From the NCBI RefSeq assembly GCF_001677475.2, contig NZ_CP015229.1: a DNA stretch of 64,000 nucleotides; one strand, 5' to 3'. The translations under genes were made by a program, and so were the position numbers. Shown here piece by piece: positions 1,625 through 32,899 of this stretch. The notes under the pieces are model-generated. The model was not told the origin of the DNA. It did not search any database and saw only the letters and a list, made by a program, of their open reading frames with translations. Source of the DNA: Escherichia coli (GTDB lineage Bacteria; Pseudomonadota; Gammaproteobacteria; Enterobacterales; Enterobacteriaceae). How positions within the stretch are numbered: the stretch's first letter is position 1; the number at the start of each line of letters is the position of its first letter.

Positions 1625-3213
1625 AACGAACGCCTGTCCTGATTGATGTGAACGGTGTTCCGCTTCGTGAGAGTCTCAGCTACAACGGGGGCGGCGCAGG
1701 ATTTGGCGGGCAAATGGCGGAGTGGTTGCCACCGGCGCAGAGTGCCGATGCGGCCCTGCTGCCCGCGTTGCGTCTGGGGAATGCCCGGGCAGATGATCTG
1801 GTGCGCAATAACGGAATAGCGGCTAATGCGGTTGCCCTGCATAAGGATCACATTGTCGGGCATATGTTTCTGATCAGCTACCGTCCGAACTGGCGCTGGC
1901 TGGGGATGCGGGAGACCGCAGCAAAAAGCTTTGTCGATGAGGTGGAGGCGTCCTGGTCGGAATACGCCGAAGGGATGTTTGGCGAGATCGACGTGGAAGG
2001 AAAACGCACGTTCACGGAATTTATCCGTGAAGGTGTGGGCGTTCATGCGTTTAACGGCGAAATCTTTGTGCAGCCGGTCTGGGATACGGAAACCACGCAG
2101 TTATTCCGTACGCGTTTTAAAGCTGTGAGTCCGAAACGGGTGGACACGCCTGGACACGGTATGGGGAACCGTTTTCTGCGGGCCGGTGTGGAGGTCGATC
2201 GATATGGCCGTGCCGTCGCGTACCATATCTGTGAGGATGATTTTCCGTTCTCTGGTAGTGGACGATGGGAACGGATCCCGCGTGAACTTCCCACCGGGCG
2301 TCCGGCCATGCTGCATATTTTCGAGCCGGTGGAGGACGGGCAGACCCGTGGGGCTAATCAGTTTTACAGCGTCATGGAACGGCTGAAGATGCTCGATTCC
2401 CTGCAGGCAACACAGCTTCAGTCGGCCATAGTGAAGGCGATGTATGCAGCGACGATTGAAAGTGAACTTGATACCGAAAAGGCCTTTGAATATATCGCCG
2501 GCGCGCCACAGGAGCAGAAGGATAATCCGCTTATTAATATTCTGGAGAAGTTCTCCAGCTGGTATGACACGAATAACGTGACACTGGGCGGAGTCAAAAT
2601 TCCGCACCTTTTCCCTGGTGATGATCTGAAACTACAGACTGCGCAGGATTCAGACAATGGATTTTCTGCACTTGAACAGGCGCTGCTGCGGTATATCGCC
2701 GCCGGTCTTGGCGTTTCCTACGAACAGTTGTCCCGTGATTACTCGAAGGTCAGTTACTCAAGTGCCCGCGCCTCCGCCAATGAGTCGTGGCGCTATTTTA
2801 TGGGGCGGCGAAAATTTATTGCGGCCCGGCTGGCCACGCAGATGTTTTCCTGCTGGCTGGAAGAGGCACTTCTTCGGGGGATTATTCGTCCGCCACGGGC
2901 ACGTTTTGATTTTTATCAGGCGCGATCAGCCTGGTCACGGGCAGAGTGGATTGGTGCCGGAAGAATGGCCATTGACGGGCTCAAGGAAGTCCAGGAATCA
3001 GTGATGCGCATTGAGGCCGGACTGAGCACGTATGAGAAAGAGCTGGCGCTAATGGGCGAGGATTATCAGGACATTTTCCGCCAGCAGGTCAGGGAATCTG
3101 CAGAGCGGCAAAAAGCCGGACTCTCACGTCCGGTGTGGATATCGCAGGCGTATCAGCAGCAGATAGCGGAGAGTCGCAGGCCGGAAGAGGAGACAACACC
3201 ACGTGAGACGTAA
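1621..3213 (+). CDS. Portal protein (lambda gpB-like)
   Basis: 530 aa ORF, ATGA overlap with the preceding gene, lambda B position and size. Confidence 0.9.
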   Translation: MKRTPVLIDVNGVPLRESLSYNGGGAGFGGQMAEWLPPAQSADAALLPALRLGNARADDLVRNNGIAANAVALHKDHIVGHMFLISYRPNWRWLGMRETAAKSFVDEVEASWSEYAEGMFGEIDVEGKRTFTEFIREGVGVHAFNGEIFVQPVWDTETTQLFRTRFKAVSPKRVDTPGHGMGNRFLRAGVEVDRYGRAVAYHICEDDFPFSGSGRWERIPRELPTGRPAMLHIFEPVEDGQTRGANQFYSVMERLKMLDSLQATQLQSAIVKAMYAATIESELDTEKAFEYIAGAPQEQKDNPLINILEKFSSWYDTNNVTLGGVKIPHLFPGDDLKLQTAQDSDNGFSALEQALLRYIAAGLGVSYEQLSRDYSKVSYSSARASANESWRYFMGRRKFIAARLATQMFSCWLEEALLRGIIRPPRARFDFYQARSAWSRAEWIGAGRMAIDGLKEVQESVMRIEAGLSTYEKELALMGEDYQDIFRQQVRESAERQKAGLSRPVWISQAYQQQIAESRRPEEETTPRET

Positions 3214-4708
3214 TCTTTCACACATTATTGCCGCAGCATTCAATGAACCGCTGCTTCTGGAGCCCGCCTATGCGCGGGTTTTCTTTTGCGCGCTCGGGCG
3301 CGAGATGGGGGCAGCAAGTCTTTCGGTACCACAACAACAGGTACAGCTTGATGCTCCCGGAATGCTGGCTGAAACGGACGAGTATATGGCCGGAGGTAAA
3401 CGACCGGCCCGTGTTTACCGGGTGGTGAACGGTATTGCTGTACTGCCGGTGACCGGCACGCTGGTGCACCGGCTGGGTGGTATGCGGCCATTTTCCGGAA
3501 TGACAGGCTATGACGGCATTGTCGCCTGTCTTCAGCAGGCAATGGCGGATAGCCAGGTGCGGGGCGTACTGCTGGACATTGACAGTCCGGGCGGGCAGGC
3601 CGCCGGCGCGTTTGACTGCGCTGACATGATTTACCGCCTCCGTCAGCAGAAGCCGGTCTGGGCACTGTGCAATGACACGGCCTGTTCTGCAGCCATGCTG
3701 CTGGCGTCGGCCTGCTCCCGACGGCTGGTTACCCAGACATCCCGTATCGGCTCCATTGGCGTGATGATGAGCCATGTCAGCTATGCCGGTCATCTGGCGC
3801 AGGCCGGTGTGGATATCACGCTGATTTACTCAGGGGCGCACAAGGTGGATGGCAATCAGTTTGAAGCGTTGCCGGCAGAGGTTCGCCAGGACATGCAGCA
3901 GCGGATTGATGCGGCGCGCCGGATGTTTGCCGAAAAAGTGGCGATGTATACCGGTCTGTCTGTTGATGCCATCACGGGAACAGAGGCTGCCGTTTTTGAA
4001 GGTCAGTCCGGCATTGAGGCCGGGCTGGCGGATGAATTAATCAATGCGTCGGATGCCATCAGTGTGATGGCCACGGCGCTGAACAGTAATGTCAGAGGAG
4101 GCACTATGCCGCAATTAACTGCAACGGAAGCCGCCGCGCAGGAGAACCAGCGAGTGATGGGGAGCCTGACATGCCAGGAAGCGAAAGGACGTGAACAGCT
4201 TGCCACGATGCTGGCAGGACAACAGGGCATGAGCGTTGAACAGGCCCGGGCGATTCTGGCCGCGGCGGCACCGCAGCAGCCGGTGGCATCCACGCAGAGT
4301 GAAGCCGATCGCATTATGGCGTGTGAAGAAGCGAACGGTCGTGAACAACTGGCGGCAACGCTGGCGGCGATGCCGGAGATGACGGTGGAAAAAGCCCGCC
4401 CGATCCTGGCTGCTTCACCGCAGGCGGATGCCGGACCATCACTCCGTGATCAGATCATGGCACTGGATGAGGCAAAAGGGGCTGAGGCGCAGGCTGAACA
4501 GCTGGCTGCCTGCCCGGGAATGACAGTGGAGAGCGCCCGGGCTGTGCTGGCTGCGGGATCAGGTAAGGCAGAACCGGTCTCTGCATCCACAACCGCCATG
4601 TTTGAACATTTCATGGCGAACCATTCACCGGCAGCGGTACAGGGTGGCGTGGCACAGACGTCAGCAGACGGTGATGCGGACGTGAAAATGCTCATGGCCA
4701 TGCCATGA
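3203..4708 (+). CDS. Capsid assembly protease C with nested scaffold (Nu3-like) C-terminal region; S49/ClpP-like peptidase
   Basis: 501 aa; N-terminal half has S49 protease-like motifs (DSPGG, SAA), C-terminal half is Ala/Gln-rich scaffold-like with three tandem repeats. Confidence 0.85.
   Translation: MRRNLSHIIAAAFNEPLLLEPAYARVFFCALGREMGAASLSVPQQQVQLDAPGMLAETDEYMAGGKRPARVYRVVNGIAVLPVTGTLVHRLGGMRPFSGMTGYDGIVACLQQAMADSQVRGVLLDIDSPGGQAAGAFDCADMIYRLRQQKPVWALCNDTACSAAMLLASACSRRLVTQTSRIGSIGVMMSHVSYAGHLAQAGVDITLIYSGAHKVDGNQFEALPAEVRQDMQQRIDAARRMFAEKVAMYTGLSVDAITGTEAAVFEGQSGIEAGLADELINASDAISVMATALNSNVRGGTMPQLTATEAAAQENQRVMGSLTCQEAKGREQLATMLAGQQGMSVEQARAILAAAAPQQPVASTQSEADRIMACEEANGREQLAATLAAMPEMTVEKARPILAASPQADAGPSLRDQIMALDEAKGAEAQAEQLAACPGMTVESARAVLAAGSGKAEPVSASTTAMFEHFMANHSPAAVQGGVAQTSADGDADVKMLMAMP
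4165..4555. repeat. Three tandem ~40-45 codon in-frame repeats inside the C/Nu3 scaffold region
   Basis: Repeated peptide unit (QEAKGREQLATMLA...VEQARAILAA / EEANGREQLAATLA...VEKARPILAA / DEAKGAEAQAEQLA...VESARAVLAA) read in the ORF translation. Confidence 0.5.
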
Positions 4709-4744
4709 AGTCAGTGCTGACCATCAATAGGAGGTTTTTACAAT

Positions 4745-5092
4745 ATGGTGACGAAAACCATCACTGAACAGCGTGCGGAAGTACGTATTTTTGCCGGTAA
4801 TGATCCGGCTCATACCGCCACAGGCAGCAGCGGGATTTCTCAGGCAACACCGGCACTGACGCCCCTGATGCTGGATGAGTCTACCGGGAAACTGGTGGTC
4901 TGGGACGGACAGAAAGCCGGTAGTGCGGCTGGCATACTGGTACTGCCGCTTGAAGGCACAGAGACGGTGCTGACGTATTACAAGTCGGGAACCTTTGCGA
5001 CGGAGGCAATCCACTGGCCTGAAAGTGTGGATGAACACAAAAAGGCCAACGCCTTTGCCGGCAGTGCCCTGAGTCACGCGGCGCTGCCGTAA
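4745..5092 (+). CDS. Head decoration protein (lambda gpD-like)
   Basis: 115 aa; conserved DPAHTAT, TPLMLD, WDG and YKSGTF motifs of lambda D. Confidence 0.9.
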   Translation: MVTKTITEQRAEVRIFAGNDPAHTATGSSGISQATPALTPLMLDESTGKLVVWDGQKAGSAAGILVLPLEGTETVLTYYKSGTFATEAIHWPESVDEHKKANAFAGSALSHAALP

Positions 5093-5149
5093 CACGTTAT
5101 CAGGCCACCGCGGTGGCCTGACTGATTTCTGAATGAAAGGAACTGATTT

Positions 5150-6178
5150 ATGGGATTGTTTACGACCCGCCAGTTGCTCGGTTATACCGAACAAAAAGTG
5201 AAATATCGTGCGCTGTTTCTGGAGCTGTTTTTCCGCCGTACGGTGAATTTCCATACCGAAGAGGTGATGCTGGACAAAATTACCGGAAAAACGCCGGTGG
5301 CGGCCTATGTCTCCCCGGTTGTTGAAGGAAAAGTGCTGCGTCATCGTGGTGGTGAAACCCGCGTGTTGCGTCCGGGCTACGTCAAGCCGAAACACGAATT
5401 TAATTACCAGCAGGCGGTTGAGCGCCTTCCTGGTGAAGATCCATCTCAACTGAACGATCCGGCTTACCGCCGTCTGCGTATCATTACCGATAACCTCAAA
5501 CAGGAAGAGCACGCGATTGTCCAGGTGGAAGAAATGCAGGCGGTAAATGCTGTGTTGTATGGCAAATACACCATGGAAGGAGACCAGTTCGAGAAAATTG
5601 AGGTCGATTTTGGCAGGTCGACGAAGAATAACATCACACAGGGTAGCGGTAAGGAATGGTCAAAACAGGATCGTGACACGTTCGATCCTACACATGATAT
5701 TGATCTTTACTGCGACCAGGCCAGCGGTCTTGTGAATATTGCCATCATGGACGGTACCGTTTGGCGTCTGCTGAATGGTTTTAAGCTGTTTCGCGAAAAA
5801 CTGGATACCCGTCGCGGTTCAAATTCACAACTCGAAACGGCAGTGAAAGATCTGGGCGCAGTGGTGTCCTTCAAGGGGTATTACGGCGATCTGGCTATTG
5901 TTGTGGCGAAAACGTCTTATATAGCAGAAGACGGTATCGAAAAACGTTATCTTCCAGATGGCATGCTGGTCCTGGGGAATACTGCTGCAGATGGGATCCG
6001 TTGTTACGGAGCCATTCAGGATGCGCAGGCGTTGTCCGAAGGTGTGGTGGCTTCTTCCCGTTATCCGAAACACTGGCTGACGGTGGGGGATCCTGCCCGT
6101 GAATTTACCATGACGCAGTCCGCACCGCTGATGGTGTTGCCGGACCCGGATGAGTTTGTGGTGGTACAGGTGAAATAA
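5150..6178 (+). CDS. Major capsid protein (lambda gpE-like)
   Basis: 342 aa; long collinear identity blocks with lambda E (PGYVKPKHE, AIVQVEEMQAV, KLDTRRGSNS, TGDPAREFTM). Confidence 0.95.
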   Translation: MGLFTTRQLLGYTEQKVKYRALFLELFFRRTVNFHTEEVMLDKITGKTPVAAYVSPVVEGKVLRHRGGETRVLRPGYVKPKHEFNYQQAVERLPGEDPSQLNDPAYRRLRIITDNLKQEEHAIVQVEEMQAVNAVLYGKYTMEGDQFEKIEVDFGRSTKNNITQGSGKEWSKQDRDTFDPTHDIDLYCDQASGLVNIAIMDGTVWRLLNGFKLFREKLDTRRGSNSQLETAVKDLGAVVSFKGYYGDLAIVVAKTSYIAEDGIEKRYLPDGMLVLGNTAADGIRCYGAIQDAQALSEGVVASSRYPKHWLTVGDPAREFTMTQSAPLMVLPDPDEFVVVQVK

Positions 6179-6185
6179 TCCGTGA

Positions 6186-6216
6186 GCGGGGGCGAAATGC
6201 CCCCGTGTCTTTTTTC
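6186..6216 (+). terminator. GC hairpin plus T-run directly after the major capsid gene
   Basis: gcgggggc-gaaat-gcccccg stem-loop followed by tgtctttttt. Confidence 0.5.
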
Positions 6217-6229
6217 ACAGGGGGCTGAT

Positions 6230-6604
6230 ATGGCAACGAAAGAGCAAAATCTGAAACGGCTTGATGAACTGGCCCTGATTCTGGGGCGTGAGCCGGATAT
6301 ATCCGGGAGTGCCGCAGAGATAGCGCAGCGGGTGGCGGAATGGGAAGAGGAAATGCAGTCATCCGGCGATGATGTACAGGTTATGAATATGGATATCCGG
6401 GAGCAGGAAACCGCGGCTCATGATGTTCGTGAGGAAACATCCGGCGCGTTAACGCGCATCAGAGTTCTGACCTGCCTCCATCTCTGTGGCATTGATGGTG
6501 AAACGGGGGAATCCGTTGAGCTTGCGGATGTTGGTCGGGTGATTCTGATTATGTCCTCAGATGCAAAAACACACGTTGATGGCGGAATGGCTGTTTATGC
6601 GTGA
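6230..6604 (+). CDS. DNA packaging protein FI-like
   Basis: Position between E and FII; acidic ~124 aa product; start chosen at the ATG at 6230 inside ORF 6182..6604. Confidence 0.65.
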   Translation: MATKEQNLKRLDELALILGREPDISGSAAEIAQRVAEWEEEMQSSGDDVQVMNMDIREQETAAHDVREETSGALTRIRVLTCLHLCGIDGETGESVELADVGRVILIMSSDAKTHVDGGMAVYA

Positions 6605-6950
6605 TTTTCAGAATGCCTTTGATGCCGCCCTTGCCGGGGTGGACAGTACGATTGTTGAAGTGATGGGCATCAGTGCGCAGTTCACCTCCGGTGCACAGCG
6701 TGGCGGCGAGGTTCATGGCGTTTTTGACGATCCGGAGTCGCTGGGTTTTGCCAGTAGTGGGATCCGTATTGAAGGAAGCAACCCGTCATTATTTGTGCTT
6801 ACGGATACGGTTTGTGCTGTACGGCGTGGTGACACGCTGACCATTAACGGCGAGATATTCTGGGTGGATCGTGTTTCTCCGGATGACGGAGGGAGTTGTT
6901 ATCTCTGGCTCAACCGGGGGCAACCACCTGCCGTTAACCGTCGCCGCTGA
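6597..6950 (+). CDS. Head-tail connector FII-like
   Basis: 117 aa from the internal ATG; C-terminus FWVDRVSPDDGGSC.LWL.RG.PPAVNRRR matches lambda FII. Confidence 0.85.
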   Translation: MRDFQNAFDAALAGVDSTIVEVMGISAQFTSGAQRGGEVHGVFDDPESLGFASSGIRIEGSNPSLFVLTDTVCAVRRGDTLTINGEIFWVDRVSPDDGGSCYLWLNRGQPPAVNRRR

Positions 6951-18262: not shown

Positions 18263-18325
18263 TGTCGCCCTGAAGGGTGCGGCCAGTATAGTTGGCGCGA
18301 GTCGGCAAAACTAGTTGACGTCTAA

Positions 18326-20320
18326 TAACCGGGCGATGTCATTGAAATCTGCGATGATGACTATGCCGGTATCAGCACCGGTGGTCGCGTGCTGGCGGTG
18401 AACAGCCAGACCCGGACGCTGACGCTCGACCGTGAAATCACGCTGCCATCCTCCGGTACCACGCTGATAAGCCTGGTTGACGGAAGTGGTAATCCGGTCA
18501 GCGTGGAGGTTCAGTCCGTCACCGACGGACTTAAGGTGAAAGTGAACCGGGTTCCTGACGGCGTTGCAGAATACAGCGTGTGGGGGCTGAAGCTGCCGAC
18601 GCTGCGCCAGCGCCTGTTCCGCTGCGTGAGTATCCGTGAGAACGACGACGGCACGTATGCCATCACTGCCGTGCAGCATGTACCGGAAAAAGAAGCCATC
18701 GTGGATAACGGGGCGCACTTTGACGGCGACCAGAGCGGCACGGTGAATGGTGTCACGCCGCCAGCGGTGCAGCACCTGACCGCCGAAGTCACCGCAGACA
18801 GCGGGGAATATCAGGTGCTGGCGCGCTGGGACACGCCGAAGGTGGTGAAGGGCGTGAGCTTCCTGCTCCGTCTGACCGTAACAGCGGATGACGGCAGTGA
18901 GCGGCTGGTCAGCACGGCCCGGACGACGGAAACCACATACCGCTTCACGCAACTGGCGCTGGGGAACTACAGGCTGACAGTCCGGGCGGTAAATGCGTGG
19001 GGGCAGCAGGGCGATCCGGCGTCGGTATCGTTCCGGATTGCCGCACCGGCAGCACCGTCGAGGATTGAGCTGACGCCGGGCTATTTTCAGATAACCGCCA
19101 CGCCGCATCTTGCCGTTTATGACCCGACGGTACAGTTTGAGTTCTGGTTCTCGGAAAAGCGGATTACCGATATCAGGCAGGTTGAAACCACAGCCCGCTA
19201 TCTTGGTACGGCGCTGTACTGGATAGCCGCCAGTATCAATATCAAACCGGGCCATGATTATTACTTTTATATCCGCAGTGTGAACACCGTTGGCAAATCG
19301 GCATTCGTGGAGGGCGTCGGTCGGGCGAGCGATGATGCGGAAGGTTACCTGGATTTTTTCAAAGGCAAGATAACCGAATCCCATCTCGGTAAAGAGCTGC
19401 TGGAAAAAGTTGATTTGACGGAGGATAACGCCAGCAGACTGGATGAGTTTTCGAAAGAGTGGAAGGACGCTAACGATAAATGGAATGCCATGTGGGGCGT
19501 CAAAATTGAGCAGACCAAAGACGGCAAACATTATGTCGCGGGTATTGGCCTCAGCATGGAGGACACGGAGGAAGGCAAGCTGAGCCAGTTTCTGGTTGCC
19601 GCTAACCGTATCGCGTTTATTGACCCGGCAAACGGGAATGAAACGCCGATGTTTGTGGCGCAGGGCAACCAGATATTCATGAACGACGTGTTCCTGAAGC
19701 GCCTGACAGCCCCCACCATTACCAGCGGTGGCAGTCCTCCGGTATTTTCCCTGACATCAGACGGAAAGCTGACCGCTAAAAATGCGGATATCAGTGGTAG
19801 TGTGAATGCGAACTCAGGAACGCTCAACAATGTCACGATTAACCAGAACTGTACGATTAAGGGCATGCTGGAGGCGACTCAGGTCAGAGGTGACTTCGTT
19901 AAAGCTGTATCCAAATCATTTCCGAAACAGGCTGGTACGTGGGGTAACACGGAAACACCAAACGGGACGGTTACAGTCACCATCAGCGATGATCATAACT
20001 TTGACCGTCAAATCATTATTCCGCCCATTATCTTTAACGGAATAGCGTATAGCGATCCGGGAAGTGGTAATAACCCGGGAGGTACAAGATACACGGGTTA
20101 TGGTTTTGAAGTTCGCAAAAACGGTGTATTAATCGCATCCAGAGAAACTAAAGGGGCCATTCCCGGTAGCTACAGTGCGGTTATTGATATGCCGAGTGGC
20201 AGGGGAAGCGTCACTCTGGAGTTTAAGGTTTTCCATAAAGGCAATCAGTGGGCAGGTAATATCACCGACTGTACGGTGATTGTGACCAAAAAAGCCGCTT
20301 CCGGCATCAGTATTCGTTGA
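18326..20320 (+). pseudogene. Tip attachment / host specificity protein J, C-terminal fragment
   Basis: Frame continues the lambda J sequence ([13 protein letters not shown]...) directly after the IS; ORF 18389..20320 covers most of it. Confidence 0.85.
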
Positions 20321-20389: not shown

Positions 20390-20989
20390 ATGCGTAAACT
20401 TTATGCCGCCATTTTGTCCGCAGCCATTTGTCTGGCCGTATCCGGTGCGCTTGCATGGGCATCTGAACATCAGTCCACGCTGAGCGCGGGGTATCTTCAT
20501 GCCCGGACCAACGTTCCCGGCAGTGATGATCTGAACGGGATTAACGTGAAATACCGTTATGAGTTTACGGATACGCTGGGGCTGGTGACGTCATTCAGCT
20601 ATGCAGGAGACAAGAATCGCCAGCTGACCCGTTACAGCGATACCCGCTGGCATGAAGATTCCGTGCGTAACCGCTGGTTCAGCGTGATGGCGGGGCCGTC
20701 TGTGCGCGTGAATGAATGGTTCAGCGCGTATGCGATGGCGGGTATGGCTTACAGCCGTGTTTCGACTTTTTCCGGGGATTACCTTCGCGTAACTGACAAC
20801 AAGGGGAAAACGCACGATGTGCTGACCGGAAGTGATGACGGTCGCCACAGCAACACGTCTCTGGCGTGGGGGGCTGGCGTGCAGTTTAACCCGACCGAAT
20901 CCGTGGCCATTGATATTGCTTATGAAGGTTCTGGCAGTGGTGACTGGCGCACTGACGGTTTCATCGTGGGTGTCGGTTATAAATTCTGA
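20390..20989 (+). CDS. lom: Lom-like outer membrane protein (Ail/Lom family)
   Basis: 199 aa, signal peptide, beta-barrel pattern ending in a C-terminal aromatic residue; lambda position right after J. Confidence 0.9.
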   Translation: MRKLYAAILSAAICLAVSGALAWASEHQSTLSAGYLHARTNVPGSDDLNGINVKYRYEFTDTLGLVTSFSYAGDKNRQLTRYSDTRWHEDSVRNRWFSVMAGPSVRVNEWFSAYAMAGMAYSRVSTFSGDYLRVTDNKGKTHDVLTGSDDGRHSNTSLAWGAGVQFNPTESVAIDIAYEGSGSGDWRTDGFIVGVGYKF

Positions 20990-21053
20990 TTAGCCAGGTA
21001 ACACAGTGTTATGACAGCCCGCCGGTTCAGGTGGGCTTTTTTGTGGGGGGAAT

Positions 21054-23993
21054 ATGGCAGTAAAGATTTCAGGTGTACTGAAAGACGGCACAGGAAAACC
21101 GGTACAGAACTGCACAATCCAGCTGAAAGCAAAACGTAACAGCACCACGGTGGTGGTGAACACGCTGGCCTCAGAAAATCCGGATGAAGCCGGGCGTTAT
21201 AGCATGGACGTTGAGTACGGTCAGTACAGCGTTATTCTGTTGGTGGAAGGATGCCCGCCGTCACATGCCGGGACCATCACCGTGTATGAAGATTCCCGAC
21301 CCGGTACGCTGAATGATTTTCTCGGTGCCATGACGGAGGATGATGCCCGTCCGGAGGCTCTGCGCCGTTTTGAACTGATGGTGGAAGAGGTGGCGCGTAA
21401 CGCGTCCGCGGTGGCACAGAACACGGCAGCCGCGAAGAAGTCAGCCGGCGATGCCGGCACATCTGCCCGTGAGGCGGCAACCCATGCGACTGATGCTGCA
21501 GATTCAGCACGTGCAGCCAGCACGTCAGCCGGACAGGCCGCGACGTCAGCTCAGGAGGCTTTTTCCTGCGCAGGAACGGCATCAGCAAAAGCCTCTGAGG
21601 CATCAAAAAGTGCTGCCGCTGCAGAGTCCTCAAAAAGCGCGGCGGCCACCAGTGCCGGTGCCGCGAAAACGTCTGAAACGAATGCTGCAGCGTCACAACA
21701 ATCAGCAGCCACTTCTGCATCCACCGCGACCACGAAAGCGTCAGAAGCTGCCACCTCAGCCCGGGATGCGTCGGCTTCAAAAGAGGCGGCAAAATCATCA
21801 GAAACGAGCGCAGCCTCGAGCGCAAGTAGTTCCGCTTCCTCGGCAACAGCGGCAGCAAATTCTGCGAAGGCGGCAAAAACGTCCGAGACGAACGCCAGGT
21901 CTTCTGAAACGGCAGCGGAACAGAGCGCCTCAGCTGCGGCAGGTTCAGAAACTACCGCTGCATCATCAGCCCGTGAGGCGTCAGTCAAAGCGGAGGAGGC
22001 TGCAGCCAGTGCCACTGCCGCCGGAAAATCGGCAGAAAGCGCCGCATCATCCGCTTCAACAGCCACAACGAAGGCTGGCGAAGCCACTGAACAGGCCAGC
22101 GCAGCAGCGAGGTCAGCTTCCGCAGCGAAGACATCCGAAACGAACGCGAAAGCGTCGGAAACCAGCGCAGAATCCTCAAAAACGGCTGCCGCATCGTCCG
22201 CCAGTTCGGCGGCGTCATCGGCCTCATCGGCGTCTGCTTCAAAAGATGAGGCGACCAGACAAGCGTCAGCAGCGAAGGGCAGCGCCACGACGGCATCCAC
22301 GAAGGCAACAGAGGCTGCTGGCAGTGCGACGGCGGCAGCACAGAGCAAAAGTACGGCGGAATCCGCGGCAACGCGCGCCGAGACAGCGGCAAAACGGGCA
22401 GAGGATATTGCATCCGCCGTGGCGCTTGAGGATGCGAGCACGACGAAAAAGGGGATAGTACAGCTCAGCAGTGCGACCAACAGCACTTCCGAGTCACAGG
22501 CGGCAACGCCAAAGGCAGTAAAAGCAGCCAATGACAATGCTGAGAAACGTCTGCAGAAAGATCAGAACGGTGCGGATATCCCTGGCAAAGACACCTTTAC
22601 GAAAAATATTGGTGCCTGCCGTGCCTTCGGTGGGTCAGTAAGCACAACAACAGGAAACTGGACGACTGCACAGTTTATCGAGTGGCTGGATTCTCAGGGA
22701 GCATTTAACCATCCATACTGGATGTGCAAGGGTTCCTGGTCTTATGGCAATAATAAAATCATTACTGATACTGGCTGCGGTAATATTCATCTCGCCGGAG
22801 CTGTCATTGAAGTAATGGGGATAAAGTCAGCGATGACGATCCGCATTACCACTCCGACTACATCCAGCGGTGGCGGAACAACCAACGCCCAGTTTACCTA
22901 TATTAATCACGGAACAGATTATTCACCTGGCTGGCGAAGGGACTATAACTCCAGAAATAAGCCAACGGCATCAGAGATCGGGGCGCTACCGTCAGGTGGA
23001 ACAGCAGTATCATCAGTTAATCTGGCTTCAAAAGGTCGGGTAGCCGCGCTGACAGACAATACGCAGGGGGCAGCAGGTCTTGAGTTATACGAGGTGTATA
23101 ACAACGGATATCCAACAGCGTATGGAAATATCATTCACCTGAAAGGGATGACAGCCGTTGGCGAAGGTGAGTTACTCATCGGCTGGAGTGGTACAAGCGG
23201 TGCTCATGCTCCGGCATTTATTCGTTCACGACGGGATACGACCGACGCAAACTGGTCGCCGTGGGCGCAGCTTTACACCTCGGCTCATCCTCCTGCAGAG
23301 TTTTATCCAGTCGGTGCACCAATCCCGTGGCCATCAGATACCGTTCCGTCTGGCTATGCCCTGATGCAGGGGCAGACTTTTGACAAATCTGCATACCCGA
23401 AACTTGCAGCGGCTTATCCGTCAGGCGTTATTCCTGATATGCGTGGCTGGACGATTAAGGGCAAGCCCGCCAGTGGTCGTGCCGTATTGTCTCAGGAACA
23501 GGACGGCATTAAATCGCACACCCACAGCGCCAGCGCATCCAGTACGGATTTGGGGACGAAAACCACATCGTCGTTTGATTACGGCACTAAATCCACGAAT
23601 AACACCGGTGCGCATACCCATAGTTTAAGTGGCAGCACGAATGCGGCTGGTAATCACAGCCATAGAGATGGCCGTCGATTTAACCCCAGTGTTTTTAAAG
23701 ATACTTATCAATATGGTTATACAAGCTCAGGTCAAAATACCTGGGGGGTACAAGGCTCAGTAGGTATGTCTACGGGGTGGTTAGCTAATACCAGTACAGA
23801 TGGTAATCATAGCCACTCACTGTCCGGTACAGCAGTATCTGCAGGTGCACACGCGCATACTGTCGGTATTGGTGCTCATACGCACTCCGTTGCGATAGGG
23901 TCACATGGACACACCATCACCGTTAACGCTGCTGGTAACGCGGAAAACACCGTCAAAAACATCGCATTTAACTATATTGTGAGGCTTGCATGA
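21054..23993 (+). CDS. stf: Side tail fibre protein Stf-like
   Basis: 979 aa; N-terminus matches the lambda Stf N-terminal domain; long Ala/Ser/Thr-rich repeat shaft; C-terminal His-x-His repeats. Confidence 0.9.
21380..22450. repeat. Low-complexity Ala/Ser/Thr/Glu-rich repeat region inside stf
   Basis: Roughly 350 codons of degenerate SAA/TSE/AAK repeats; GC-rich and free of stops in several frames. Confidence 0.6.
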
Positions 23994-24892
23994 TTACGCT
24001 CATTCTTTCTGCACCAGTAACAGAAATGGCTGAAGCATTTAAGCGGGTATTCGCAAATGCAGATAATGTGAATATTGTCGGAAAGCCATTTGAAACAATC
24101 AGGGAATTTGACTGCATGGTAAGTGCGGCAAACAGTTTCGGCCTGATGGATGGCGGTGTTGATGCCGCCATTACCGCATTCTTCGGTACTCAGTTACAGT
24201 CCCGCGTTCAGAATCATATTCTTCGTGAATATCTCGGCGAGCAGCCTGTAGGTTCTGCATTTGTTATTGAAACGGGGCATAATCATCATCCCTGGCTGGT
24301 ACATGCGCCAACAATGCGTGTTCCGCTGACAATTGACGGAACAGACGCTGTATATAACGCAACCTGGGCCGCTCTGCTTGCCATCTTTCAGCACAATAAA
24401 CACGCAACGACAGACAGGAAAATAAAAACGGTGGTATTCCCTGCAATGGGAGCCGGATGTGGTCAGGTGCCGTTTGAAAGTGTTGCCCGGCAGATGAAGC
24501 AGGCATGGGATAACTTTAATAAAAAAACAGAATCAATTAACTGGGAATACGCACAATCCCGCCAGTCGGCAGTATTTGGCACATATGCATACTGTCCGGG
24601 TAATTCTGTTTGCCGTTATGCGGATACTAAATATATTGGATGCGGCGATTATCGGACGTATTGCTCACGTTCCGGGCAGGTCTGTATTAACCCTGAACAT
24701 CAGGCTGATGATGTACTGATACAACATCAGGCTAATAACCGGTTTCGCCCTGGTTCGCATATACACCGGATTAATCCAGAAAATCCCGTAGGTAATGTCA
24801 TCTCTGGCGCACATAGCCACGGAAGTAGCATCGTTATTGGTGCTCACACCCATACGCTCAATAAACAATATTCTGTCTCTGATATTAAGTAG
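23990..24892 (+). CDS. Protein with macrodomain-like N-terminus (putative ADP-ribose binding/hydrolase) and Cys/His-rich fibre-tip-like C-terminus
   Basis: 300 aa; start overlaps the stf stop (ATGA); motifs [18 protein letters not shown] and [12 protein letters not shown] resemble the two macrodomain signature blocks; C-terminal GSHIH, GAHSHG, GAHTHT repeats. Confidence 0.6.
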
Positions 24893-24900
24893 AGGTGAAC

Positions 24901-25476
24901 ATGGATTTCAGAATGAGTGAACAACCACGGACCATAACAATTTATAATCTGCTGGCCGGAACTAATGAATTTATTGGTGAAGGTGATGCATATATTCCGC
25001 CTCATACAGGTCTGCCAGCAAACAGTACCGATATTGCACCGCCAGATATTCCGGCTGGCTTTGTGGCTGTTTTCAACAGTGATGAGGCATCGTGGCATCT
25101 CGTTGAAGACCATCGGGGTAAAACCGTCTATGACGTGGCTTCCGGCGACGCGTTATTTATTTCTGAACTTGGCCCATTACCGGAAAATGTCACTTGGTTA
25201 TCCCCGGAAGGGGAGTTTCAGAAGTGGAACGGCACAGCCTGGGTGAAGGATACGGAAGCAGAAAAACTGTTCCGGATCCGGGAGGCGGAAGAAACAAAAA
25301 ACAACCTGATGCAGGTAGCCAGTGAGCATATTGCGCCGCTTCAGGATGCTGCAGATCTGGAAATTGCAACGGAGGAAGAAATCTCGTTGCTGGAAGCATG
25401 GAAAAAGTATCGGGTATTGCTGAACCGTGTTGATACGTCAACTGCACAGGATATTGAATGGCCAGCACTGCCGTAG
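24901..25476 (+). CDS. tfa: Tail fibre assembly protein Tfa-like
   Basis: Collinear with lambda Tfa ([75 protein letters not shown]...). Confidence 0.9.
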
Positions 25477-25573
25477 GGTAAAACATATAAATTCTATAAT
25501 TAGATGTATCTTTCCATTTACGGCAAGGAAGGGGGCTTGGAAGACGTAAAGCATCTCACACCGAGATTATTTT

Positions 25574-26164
25574 TTATATGTCAGGTGTCTGAAGTTTTGC
25601 TTTGGCTCTTAAAATGGTTTGCCGCGAGGTTTTGAATTCCCGGGCAATGGCACTTATACTTACACCTGACTTAATTCGTTCGAATACCACCTGTTTCTGT
25701 TCTTCATTTAACACAGGTGGTCGACCAAAACGTTTCCCTGCGCCCCGGGCTCTTACTATCCCGGAATGAGTGCGTTCAAGTAAAAGGTCTCGTTCAAATT
25801 CAGCGACTGCTGAAATTACTTGCATCATCATTTTTCCTGTTGGACTGGTCAGGTCAATGCCCCCCAATGCTAAGCAATGCACTCTGATACCTGTTTCGGT
25901 CAGTTGTTCCACTGTTTTCCTGATATCCATTGCATTACAACCAAGGCGATCCAGTTTTGTCACAATCAATTGATCACCACATTTCAGGCGAGCAAGCAAC
26001 CGGTTAAAACCAGGACGCTCACTGGTTGCTGCTGAGCCGCTAATGTGTTCTTCGATTATTTGCTGAGGTTTGATTTTAAAACCTGCACTTTCGATTTCCC
26101 GGCGTTGATTTTCGGGGGTCTGATCCAGCGTTGATATCCGACAGTAAGCAAAAATTCGAGACAT
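25574..26164 (-). CDS. Small serine recombinase (resolvase/invertase family)
   Basis: 196 aa; N-terminal catalytic block YCRISTLDQ (Ser nucleophile), [11 protein letters not shown]-terminal HTH. Confidence 0.85.
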
Positions 26165-26543
26165 AGTGAGACTCTATACGAAATTGGTGTACATATCATA
26201 ATGCATATCCAAAAATTATTTCGCTTATTATTGTACATATTTGTATGTATACGTTCGAAAATAAACGAATTCGGATGCAGTCCCGTAATTTTGGTGTAAC
26301 CAAAAATCGATTTTTTGAAAAATGGCTTTAACTCGGTTTGTTTTTCGAACTCCGGGCGGACTCGAGGAAGACGAATAATAGTGTTGTATGTTATTTTAAC
26401 CAGATTTTAAGTTGTTTGGTCGTGGAAAAGTGGAGCAAAATGTTGTTAAAGTGGAAAAATGGTAAAAAAAGTAGGTTGTTGCGGAATAACGTAGTTGTTG
26501 ATATTTTTTTAATGCATTGAAAAATTATTTTTCAGGGGGGGTA

Positions 26544-31921: not shown

Positions 31922-32899
<978 letters not shown>

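Follow-up and report, generated by a model that had tools for sequence, protein, structure and literature searches.

We analyzed a 64,000-nucleotide stretch of Escherichia coli DNA (RefSeq assembly GCF_001677475.2, contig NZ_CP015229.1), referred to here as the window, with a focus on the side tail fiber gene stf and the long repetitive shaft encoded in its first half. The window was 100% identical to a lambdoid prophage of E. coli strain M114. In the annotation of that identical locus, the J-lom-stf-tfa arrangement of a lambdoid tail module is present, with a macro-domain open reading frame (ORF) as an extra gene between stf and tfa. Coordinates of all features are listed in Table 1. Residues 1-94 of Stf matched PDB entry 9e7m, 'Tail fiber protein', the N-domain of lambda Stf (E = 1.4e-50), and are the counterpart of the part of lambda Stf that was resolved on the tail tip.

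Table 1. Features of the stf region, in window coordinates (aa, amino acids; nt, nucleotides)
Feature	Position	Strand	Description or basis
J	ends 20320		
lom	20390-20989		
stf, side tail fiber gene	21054-23993	+	979 aa; ORF list; Pfam PF08400, Collar PF07484
N-terminal collar domain (PfN / phage_tail_N)	21054-21455	+	Stf aa 1-134; Pfam PF08400, E = 3.3e-71
Antisense -2 frame, nearly open	21277-22413	-	199 aa (21277-21876) and 142 aa (21985-22413); not in the sequence-only reading
Heptad shaft, predicted coiled coil (PCoil / proximal coiled coil)	21396-22439	+	Stf aa 115-462; register scan, composition, self-identity
Phantom ORF, 335 aa	21451-22458	+	stf frame +1; R 27%, Q 16%, P 16%; ORF list
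Phantom ORF, 328 aa	21551-22537	-	wobble-aligned antisense; A 35%, V 12%, S 10%, D 10%, L 9%, F 8%; ORF list
Four imperfect 28-nt direct repeats	21658-22147	+	starts at 21658, 21784, 21868, 22120; AAK(T/S)SETNA-type; repeat search
9-nt mini-array	22210-22231	+	2.4 copies; encodes SSA units; Tandem Repeats Finder (TRF)
Junction motif at shaft end	22422-22496	+	Stf aa 457-481; includes GIVQLS; common to Mu S tail fibers
Distal half of Stf	22536-23990	+	Mu S-like domain aa 495-679; collar domain; T4 gp37-like His-rich tip aa 750-979
Macro-domain ORF	23990-24892	+	
tfa	24895-25476		Pfam Caudo_TAP, E = 3.7e-43
Pin-like serine recombinase	25574-26164	-	

An earlier sequence-only reading of this DNA had described a degenerate Ala/Ser/Thr/Glu-rich repeat within stf, and such a stretch was present where that reading had placed it: residues 109-495 of Stf were 36% Ala, 21% Ser, 12% Thr, 8% Glu, and 7% Lys. 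Missed in that reading were the repeat unit, which is a strict heptad, and a third frame, antisense, that is nearly open. A register scan placed 50 heptads, or 348 residues, in a single unbroken register. Written in rows of seven, the protein follows x-S-A-x-x-A-x without a break, with Ala at 35 of 50 core a positions and at 46 of 49 core d positions, and Ser at 35 of 50 g positions. The shaft contains no proline, no tyrosine, and only 6 bulky hydrophobic residues; Leu, Ile, and Val are nearly absent. At the DNA level, GC content was 0.59-0.63 in the shaft versus 0.47-0.52 in its flanks, and AT skew reached +0.46. When the protein was compared with itself, the best 25 offsets were all multiples of 7, with a mean identity of 0.38 at those offsets versus 0.19 elsewhere, a periodicity well above what chance would give. 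Higher-order repeats and recent internal duplications were considered and rejected, as self-identity was flat (0.37-0.43) over the multiples of 7 and no long period dominated. At 0.148 nm per residue, the shaft would measure approximately 51 nm.

We read this shaft, with a probability of roughly 90%, as a trimeric alanine-core coiled-coil rod, the known PCoil domain of the lambda-type side tail fiber, that forms a module of constant length and leaves the extra open frames as by-products. As in lambda, three Stf chains would be anchored on the tail tip by their N-terminal collars and would then zip up into a thin, stiff, parallel alpha-helical rod of about 350 residues and about 51 nm. This rod would extend the hinge and an exchangeable distal receptor-binding half outward from the tail.

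Shaft length among relatives

Shaft length was measured in amino acids from the RRFEL motif at the collar end to the GIVQLS junction. Among 17 fetched stf sequences with 86-100% identity, which were the relatives used throughout, this distance was 363 aa in every case. Total Stf length in the same set ranged from 941 to 1176 aa, and the differences lay wholly C-terminal of residue 467, the position at which GIVQLS was found in all 17 and after which distal modules of differing length follow. Comparison of stf length among relatives had been proposed as a check on the sequence-only reading; total length did vary, but the part of the protein to which the variation had been ascribed did not. In a larger set of 120 close database homologues, the distance was 363 aa in 98, 356 aa in ten, 360 aa in five, and 366 aa in one. 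Likewise, when the first 1447 nt of stf were compared with a sample spread over E. coli genomes, 39 of the 40 near-full-length matches were free of gaps. About 15,000 stf-like places are present in the 5426 complete genomes of E. coli.

Across the wider family, represented by 29 proteins from clusters at 50% identity, anchor distances were 363, 314, 258, 251, 160, 146, and 139 aa in 23 of the 29, all of which are 6 mod 7. Of all 21-aa windows across the family, 82% shared a register when counted from the N-domain. The lambda shaft was separated from this one by a single gap of 315 nt, or 15 heptads (105 aa). One interpretation of such classes is that the shaft is a selected molecular ruler, with length classes tuned to its reach relative to the central fiber J or to the depth of the host surface layer. 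We regard this as a tentative and rather unlikely account; under it, selection, and not just a lack of mutational opportunity, would keep E. coli prophages in the 363-residue class.

A second interpretation, which follows from the suggestion in the sequence-only reading that the repeat could drive changes in shaft length, is that the shaft is a hypervariable tract, prone to slippage or recombination, that chiefly generates fiber-length variants. Events of this kind were found. The 360-aa homologues (e.g., P0018 and P0077) lacked one SSA unit (-3 aa) at the 9-nt mini-array, a 3-aa duplication was present in 1 of 120 homologues, and the ten 356-aa homologues (the P0090 group) were shorter by exactly one heptad (-7 aa). 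E. coli strain 201609 lacked 126 nt, or six heptads (-42 aa), which mapped to window positions 21675-21800. The deletion fell between copies 1 and 2 of the imperfect 28-nt repeats, with a 7-nt GAAACGA microhomology at the junction. The spacings of these four repeats (126, 84, and 252 nt) are all multiples of 21; a fifth, overlapping copy at 22141-22168 was left out of the family of four. That the family length classes lie mostly whole heptads apart also fits this interpretation. However, no real tandem array was present, as TRF found only three arrays of 22-26 nt in the shaft DNA. The longest exact direct repeat was 12 nt, no more than the mean of 12.1 nt in codon shuffles, and DNA self-identity at multiples of 21 nt was just 0.43. 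Moreover, shaft length was the same in all 17 relatives, even down to 86% identity, and in most of the 120 homologues, nearly all of the sampled genome matches were ungapped, and the length differences among relatives sat distally. A slippage-prone tract as the main mode is therefore largely refuted, and we consider it improbable. What stands of the earlier suggestion is that rare indels occur at short imperfect repeats; the repeat is not the source of the Stf length differences among the relatives.

The constant-length rod would instead be maintained in the following way. The heptads are too diverged in DNA to slip or recombine readily. Stf would vary chiefly when distal modules are swapped at the conserved GIVQLS junction or beyond it, and the coiled coil itself would also undergo exchange now and then. 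Similarity to other fibers broke inside the shaft at stf nt 350, approximately nt 840 (839-842, in several genomes), and approximately nt 1330. At the one junction examined, that of L021 at about nt 840, the heptads continued in phase and the register was kept; a mosaic junction at nt 842 falls within copy 3 of the 28-nt repeats. On rare occasions, the shaft would change, most often by whole heptads, when DNA between short imperfect repeats is deleted or duplicated, and when summed over the family, such events could give rise to discrete length classes, most of them whole heptads apart.

It was also observed that most of the top Stf homologues in the database are 'partial' proteins whose contigs stop within stf, and some entries, among P0005, P0025, and P0035, are misleadingly named (e.g., 'short-chain fatty acid transporter' or 'PPE-repeat protein'). 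These records show how a low-complexity shaft, together with multi-copy prophages, disturbs both assembly and annotation.

Alternative reading frames over the shaft

The 335-aa and 328-aa ORFs on the two strands were found exactly as the sequence-only reading had given them. Stops occurred at 0.3-0.5 per 100 codons in these two frames, versus about 2-7 across the rest of stf. We compared the observed stops with those in shuffles of codon order or of synonymous codons with the protein kept. The +1 frame had 2 stops, compared to 3.0-3.2 in the shuffles (P = 0.24-0.30), and the wobble-aligned antisense frame had 1, compared to 1.4-1.9 (P = 0.42-0.56). The scarcity of stops can be traced to the residues of the shaft. 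Stops in the +1 frame are possible only at stf codons with T in the second position, which make up 6 of the 348 shaft codons. Stops in the wobble-aligned antisense frame need Tyr codons, of which there are none, or Gln or His codons, of which there are 10, following a codon that ends in T.

The third open frame, antisense -2, required a separate explanation. Its stops need CTA, TTA, or TCA spanning a codon junction, and 2 were observed versus 9.6 in synonymous shuffles (P about 0.001). This shortage was accounted for by NCT|A junctions, which numbered 1 of 32 in the shaft versus 8.4 expected. Junctions forming CTA were also depleted in ten neighboring gene segments, with 17 observed versus 35.6 expected (ratio 0.48). 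Few stops arise in this frame, then, because CTA codon junctions are generally avoided here; once the local avoidance was taken into account, what remained was not significant (P about 0.08). Selection to keep the antisense -2 frame open was rejected for this reason. General avoidance of TpA was also rejected as the cause, since NNT|A junctions were not depleted in most of the neighboring genes. As a local feature, CT-ending codons seldom precede A-starting codons, and this lowers the number of antisense TAG stops. Three of the five alternative frames are thus open over hundreds of codons as a passive by-product of the make-up of the shaft, because its core uses Ala rather than Leu, Ile, or Val and its surface uses Ser, Thr, Glu, and Lys.

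Among the 17 relatives, third positions of stf held 215 of the 320 variable sites, and 69% of codon differences were synonymous in the stf frame, versus 6-11% in the +1, +2, -0, and -2 frames (10% in +1 and 7% in antisense -2). The +1 ORF was interrupted in 4 of the 17 relatives (L006, L008, L009, and L010), and a Pfam search of its product gave no match. In the codon-usage check that had been proposed for the alternative frames, 24% of codons in the +1 ORF were rare, versus 2-5% in real genes of this region. The antisense -2 frame contained 1 to 4 stops, varying among the relatives.

Could one of these frames nevertheless be a true gene that overlaps stf? The strongest case can be made for the 328-aa antisense ORF, which is long and has a counterpart annotated in lambda records, orf206b (lambdap90), with 83% identity over 119 aa. 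Only 1.8% of its codons were rare, and 65% of its codon differences among the relatives were synonymous. However, the third positions of this frame coincide with those of stf, and the synonymous excess and the codon quality are both forced by this wobble alignment. A crude test of transversions at four-fold sites of stf, sorted by antisense degeneracy, found fewer at antisense two-fold codons (P = 0.035), but the signal vanished when sites were stratified by the next base (AA 3/18 versus AC+AG 3/20). Control for sequence context thus left no constraint specific to the antisense frame. Furthermore, the TTG start was missing in 9 of the 17 relatives, and extra stops were gained in 10. No promoter-like site was found for the ORF on either strand, nor was a Shine-Dalgarno-like sequence found upstream of it, and its one Pfam match was below threshold and not credible (E = 0.0029; 18 bits versus a cutoff of 27). 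The openness of the frame is as expected from composition. Knockdown of lambda orf206b gave no plaque phenotype, which is weak evidence against a gene since stf is dispensable in that assay. In the literature, we found no ribosome-profiling study of these frames. We consider an overlapping gene very improbable; the 335-aa, 328-aa, 199-aa, and 142-aa ORFs are, judged from sequence, not genes, and the sequence-only reading was right to call its two ORFs phantoms.

These results have consequences for annotation. Ala/Ser/Thr-rich shafts in stf genes reliably yield ORFs of 140-340 codons in three other frames, and the lambda annotation has held one of them, orf206b/lambdap90, since the original record J02459. 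The ORF found here lies in the same wobble-aligned frame and is the positional and sequence counterpart of orf206b, which lies inside stf/orf-401. In contrast to orf206b, it is longer, because the shaft here is longer, and it is uncalled in M114, whereas the lambda ORF is annotated as a hypothetical protein. Both ORFs are by-products of the same coiled-coil coding sequence. A wobble-aligned antisense frame mimics purifying selection, and naive counts of synonymous and non-synonymous differences are unfit for gene calling in such a frame.

An additional long ORF of 406 aa was observed antisense to J (18311-19531, minus strand), in DNA with a GC content of 0.60-0.66. It is absent from the M114 annotation and looks like a further compositional phantom.

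Shaft structure and comparison with known fibers

An AlphaFold2 (AF2) monomer model of a 431-residue segment, which was used for secondary structure only, placed helices at residues 6-98, 106-162, 175-285, and 300-389, with a mean predicted local distance difference test (pLDDT) score of 67. Several points weigh against the reading of the shaft as a constant-length trimeric rod. This single-chain model reached only moderate confidence, and its helix was broken at four or five places; the breaks probably reflect, in this model, fold-back of the chain without its partners. The trimer state and the geometry of the rod are carried over from lambda Stf and from EPclA, and would hold by analogy. Six of the 29 family representatives were 5 mod 7 (313, 215, and 110 aa) and thus not a whole number of heptads away from this one, and 3-aa indels (-3 or +3), which shift the register locally, were present in 6 of the 120 homologues. 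Lastly, substitution statistics do not strictly rule against translation of the wobble-aligned antisense ORF. That the shaft is a flexible, intrinsically disordered low-complexity linker and not a folded rod is virtually excluded: its Ala/Ser/Thr composition and the moderate AF2 confidence with low-pLDDT breaks would suit such a linker, but strict heptads with Ala in the a and d positions run in one register for 348 residues, proline is absent, AF2 predicted helix for almost every residue, a homologous PfN-PCoil fragment was a cooperative alpha-helical coiled coil by circular dichroism and electron microscopy (PMC3368898), with a reported Tm of about 49 °C, and Ur-lambda has an extended proximal rod in cryo-electron tomography (PMC12617516).

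The rod described here is an ordinary and already known feature. The coiled coil, its Ala/Ser heptad, and the rule that lengths differ by multiples of seven date from a 2012 publication, and structural work confirmed the trimeric proximal coiled coil for Ur-lambda in 2025. Ghosh et al. 2012 (PMC3368898) gave the name PCoil to the low-complexity region that follows PfN (PF08400) in fibers of enterohemorrhagic E. coli prophages, and noted that PCoil lengths differ by multiples of seven. The Ur-lambda study (PMC12617516, 2025) described the Stf trimer as a proximal coiled coil at residues 102-393 followed by a hinge and a distal gp37-like part, and resolved residues 1-94, which form the Stf collar (N-domain entries PDB 9e7m/9mgh).

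Like lambda Stf, the protein examined here has an N-terminal collar domain with the same heptad register relative to it, followed in order by a linker, the coiled coil, a GIVxLS junction or hinge, and a distal part bearing a T4 gp37-like tip; DNA identity to lambda was 83% over the aligned shaft. The shaft here exceeds that of lambda by 105 residues (15 heptads, about 15.5 nm), a difference that lies in the single 315-nt indel, and the distal half has an additional Mu S-like domain. Similarities to the PCoil of EPclA-D (PMC3368898) are its position directly after PfN, its Ala-x-x-Ala/Ser-x-x-Ser heptads nearly without Leu, Ile, or Val, and its length quantized in sevens. Collagen triple-helix domains follow the EPclA-D PCoil, whereas GIVQLS and Mu S/T4 gp37-like modules follow here, and the shaft here appears to be much longer (about 350 residues).

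Small alanine residues in the core of a parallel trimeric coiled coil are also a feature of alanine-zipper trimers such as E. coli Lpp-56. Lpp has about 56 residues and a mixed Ala/Leu/Val/Ile core and bears no sequence relationship to Stf, so the resemblance to the shaft is one of principle only.

Beyond the shaft, Stf residues 441-524, the junction region, matched PDB entries 8ju3 and 5yvq (Mu S). The distal half matched 8ju3 (E = 1.3e-85) as well as 2xgf, the tip of T4 gp37 (E = 4.7e-84), and the Pfam Collar domain (PF07484) spanned residues 754-801. Residues 750-979 are a predicted receptor-binding tip of the T4 gp37 type. Like S fiber genes of the P1/Mu type, stf combines a constant shaft with exchangeable tips, and its GIVQLS junction matches the Mu S structures; unlike in those fibers, the N-terminal attachment domain is lambdoid (PF08400) and not that of a myophage. 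Host-range variation would be found beyond the GIVQLS junction, with the shaft as a constant-length, heptad-quantized module, and fiber length could be engineered in steps of 7 residues, or about 1 nm.

A fiber gene on E. coli plasmid pTLYA-2 (NZ_CP137164.1, L020; positions 2942-6775) shares the shaft from about residue 178 to 443, with about 91% DNA identity. In the fiber genes of pTLYA-2 and H119, both the N-terminus and the distal part joined to the shared shaft segment differ from those of Stf. These genes lie on large plasmids (about 110 kb) that are probably P1-like phage-plasmids. The joining of one shaft segment to different ends indicates, from these alignments, that the coiled coil has been exchanged between siphophage and P1-type fibers.

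Neighboring genes and other features

The ATG of the macro-domain ORF overlaps the stf stop codon. The ORF encodes 300 aa with a Pfam Macro match (E = 7.7e-19) and corresponds to phrog_2613, with only a faint DarG-like match. In close relatives, among them mEp460 and the Rac prophage of K-12, it is lacking and tfa directly follows stf. Of 5426 complete E. coli genomes, only 127 had it, a count that includes 22 plasmid places, and it overlapped a tail-fiber gene annotation in 22 of the 25 matches listed. Its C-terminus has GAHSH and GAHTH motifs that resemble the His-rich gp37-type fiber tip (E = 0.003). The ORF could be a moron or anti-defense cargo, or a fiber-associated protein.

An invertible host-range segment around tfa and the Pin-like recombinase was also considered. 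Despite the adjacent Pin/Gin-type serine recombinase, no inverted repeats of at least 18 nt were found in 22400-26400, and no such segment is evident.

An Rfam search gave no match within the shaft interval. The 64-nt gap between lom and stf contains a GC-rich, terminator-like hairpin followed by a run of T residues (21016-21037, plus strand). A full-length match to the candidate small RNA IS009 (RF02111; 220.9 bits) was found within tfa, in its 3' half (25244-25442, plus strand). Outside the prophage tail region, the nucleoid-associated RNA naRNA4 (RF02564) occurred in two tandem copies on the plus strand, at 32697-32775 and 32798-32876.

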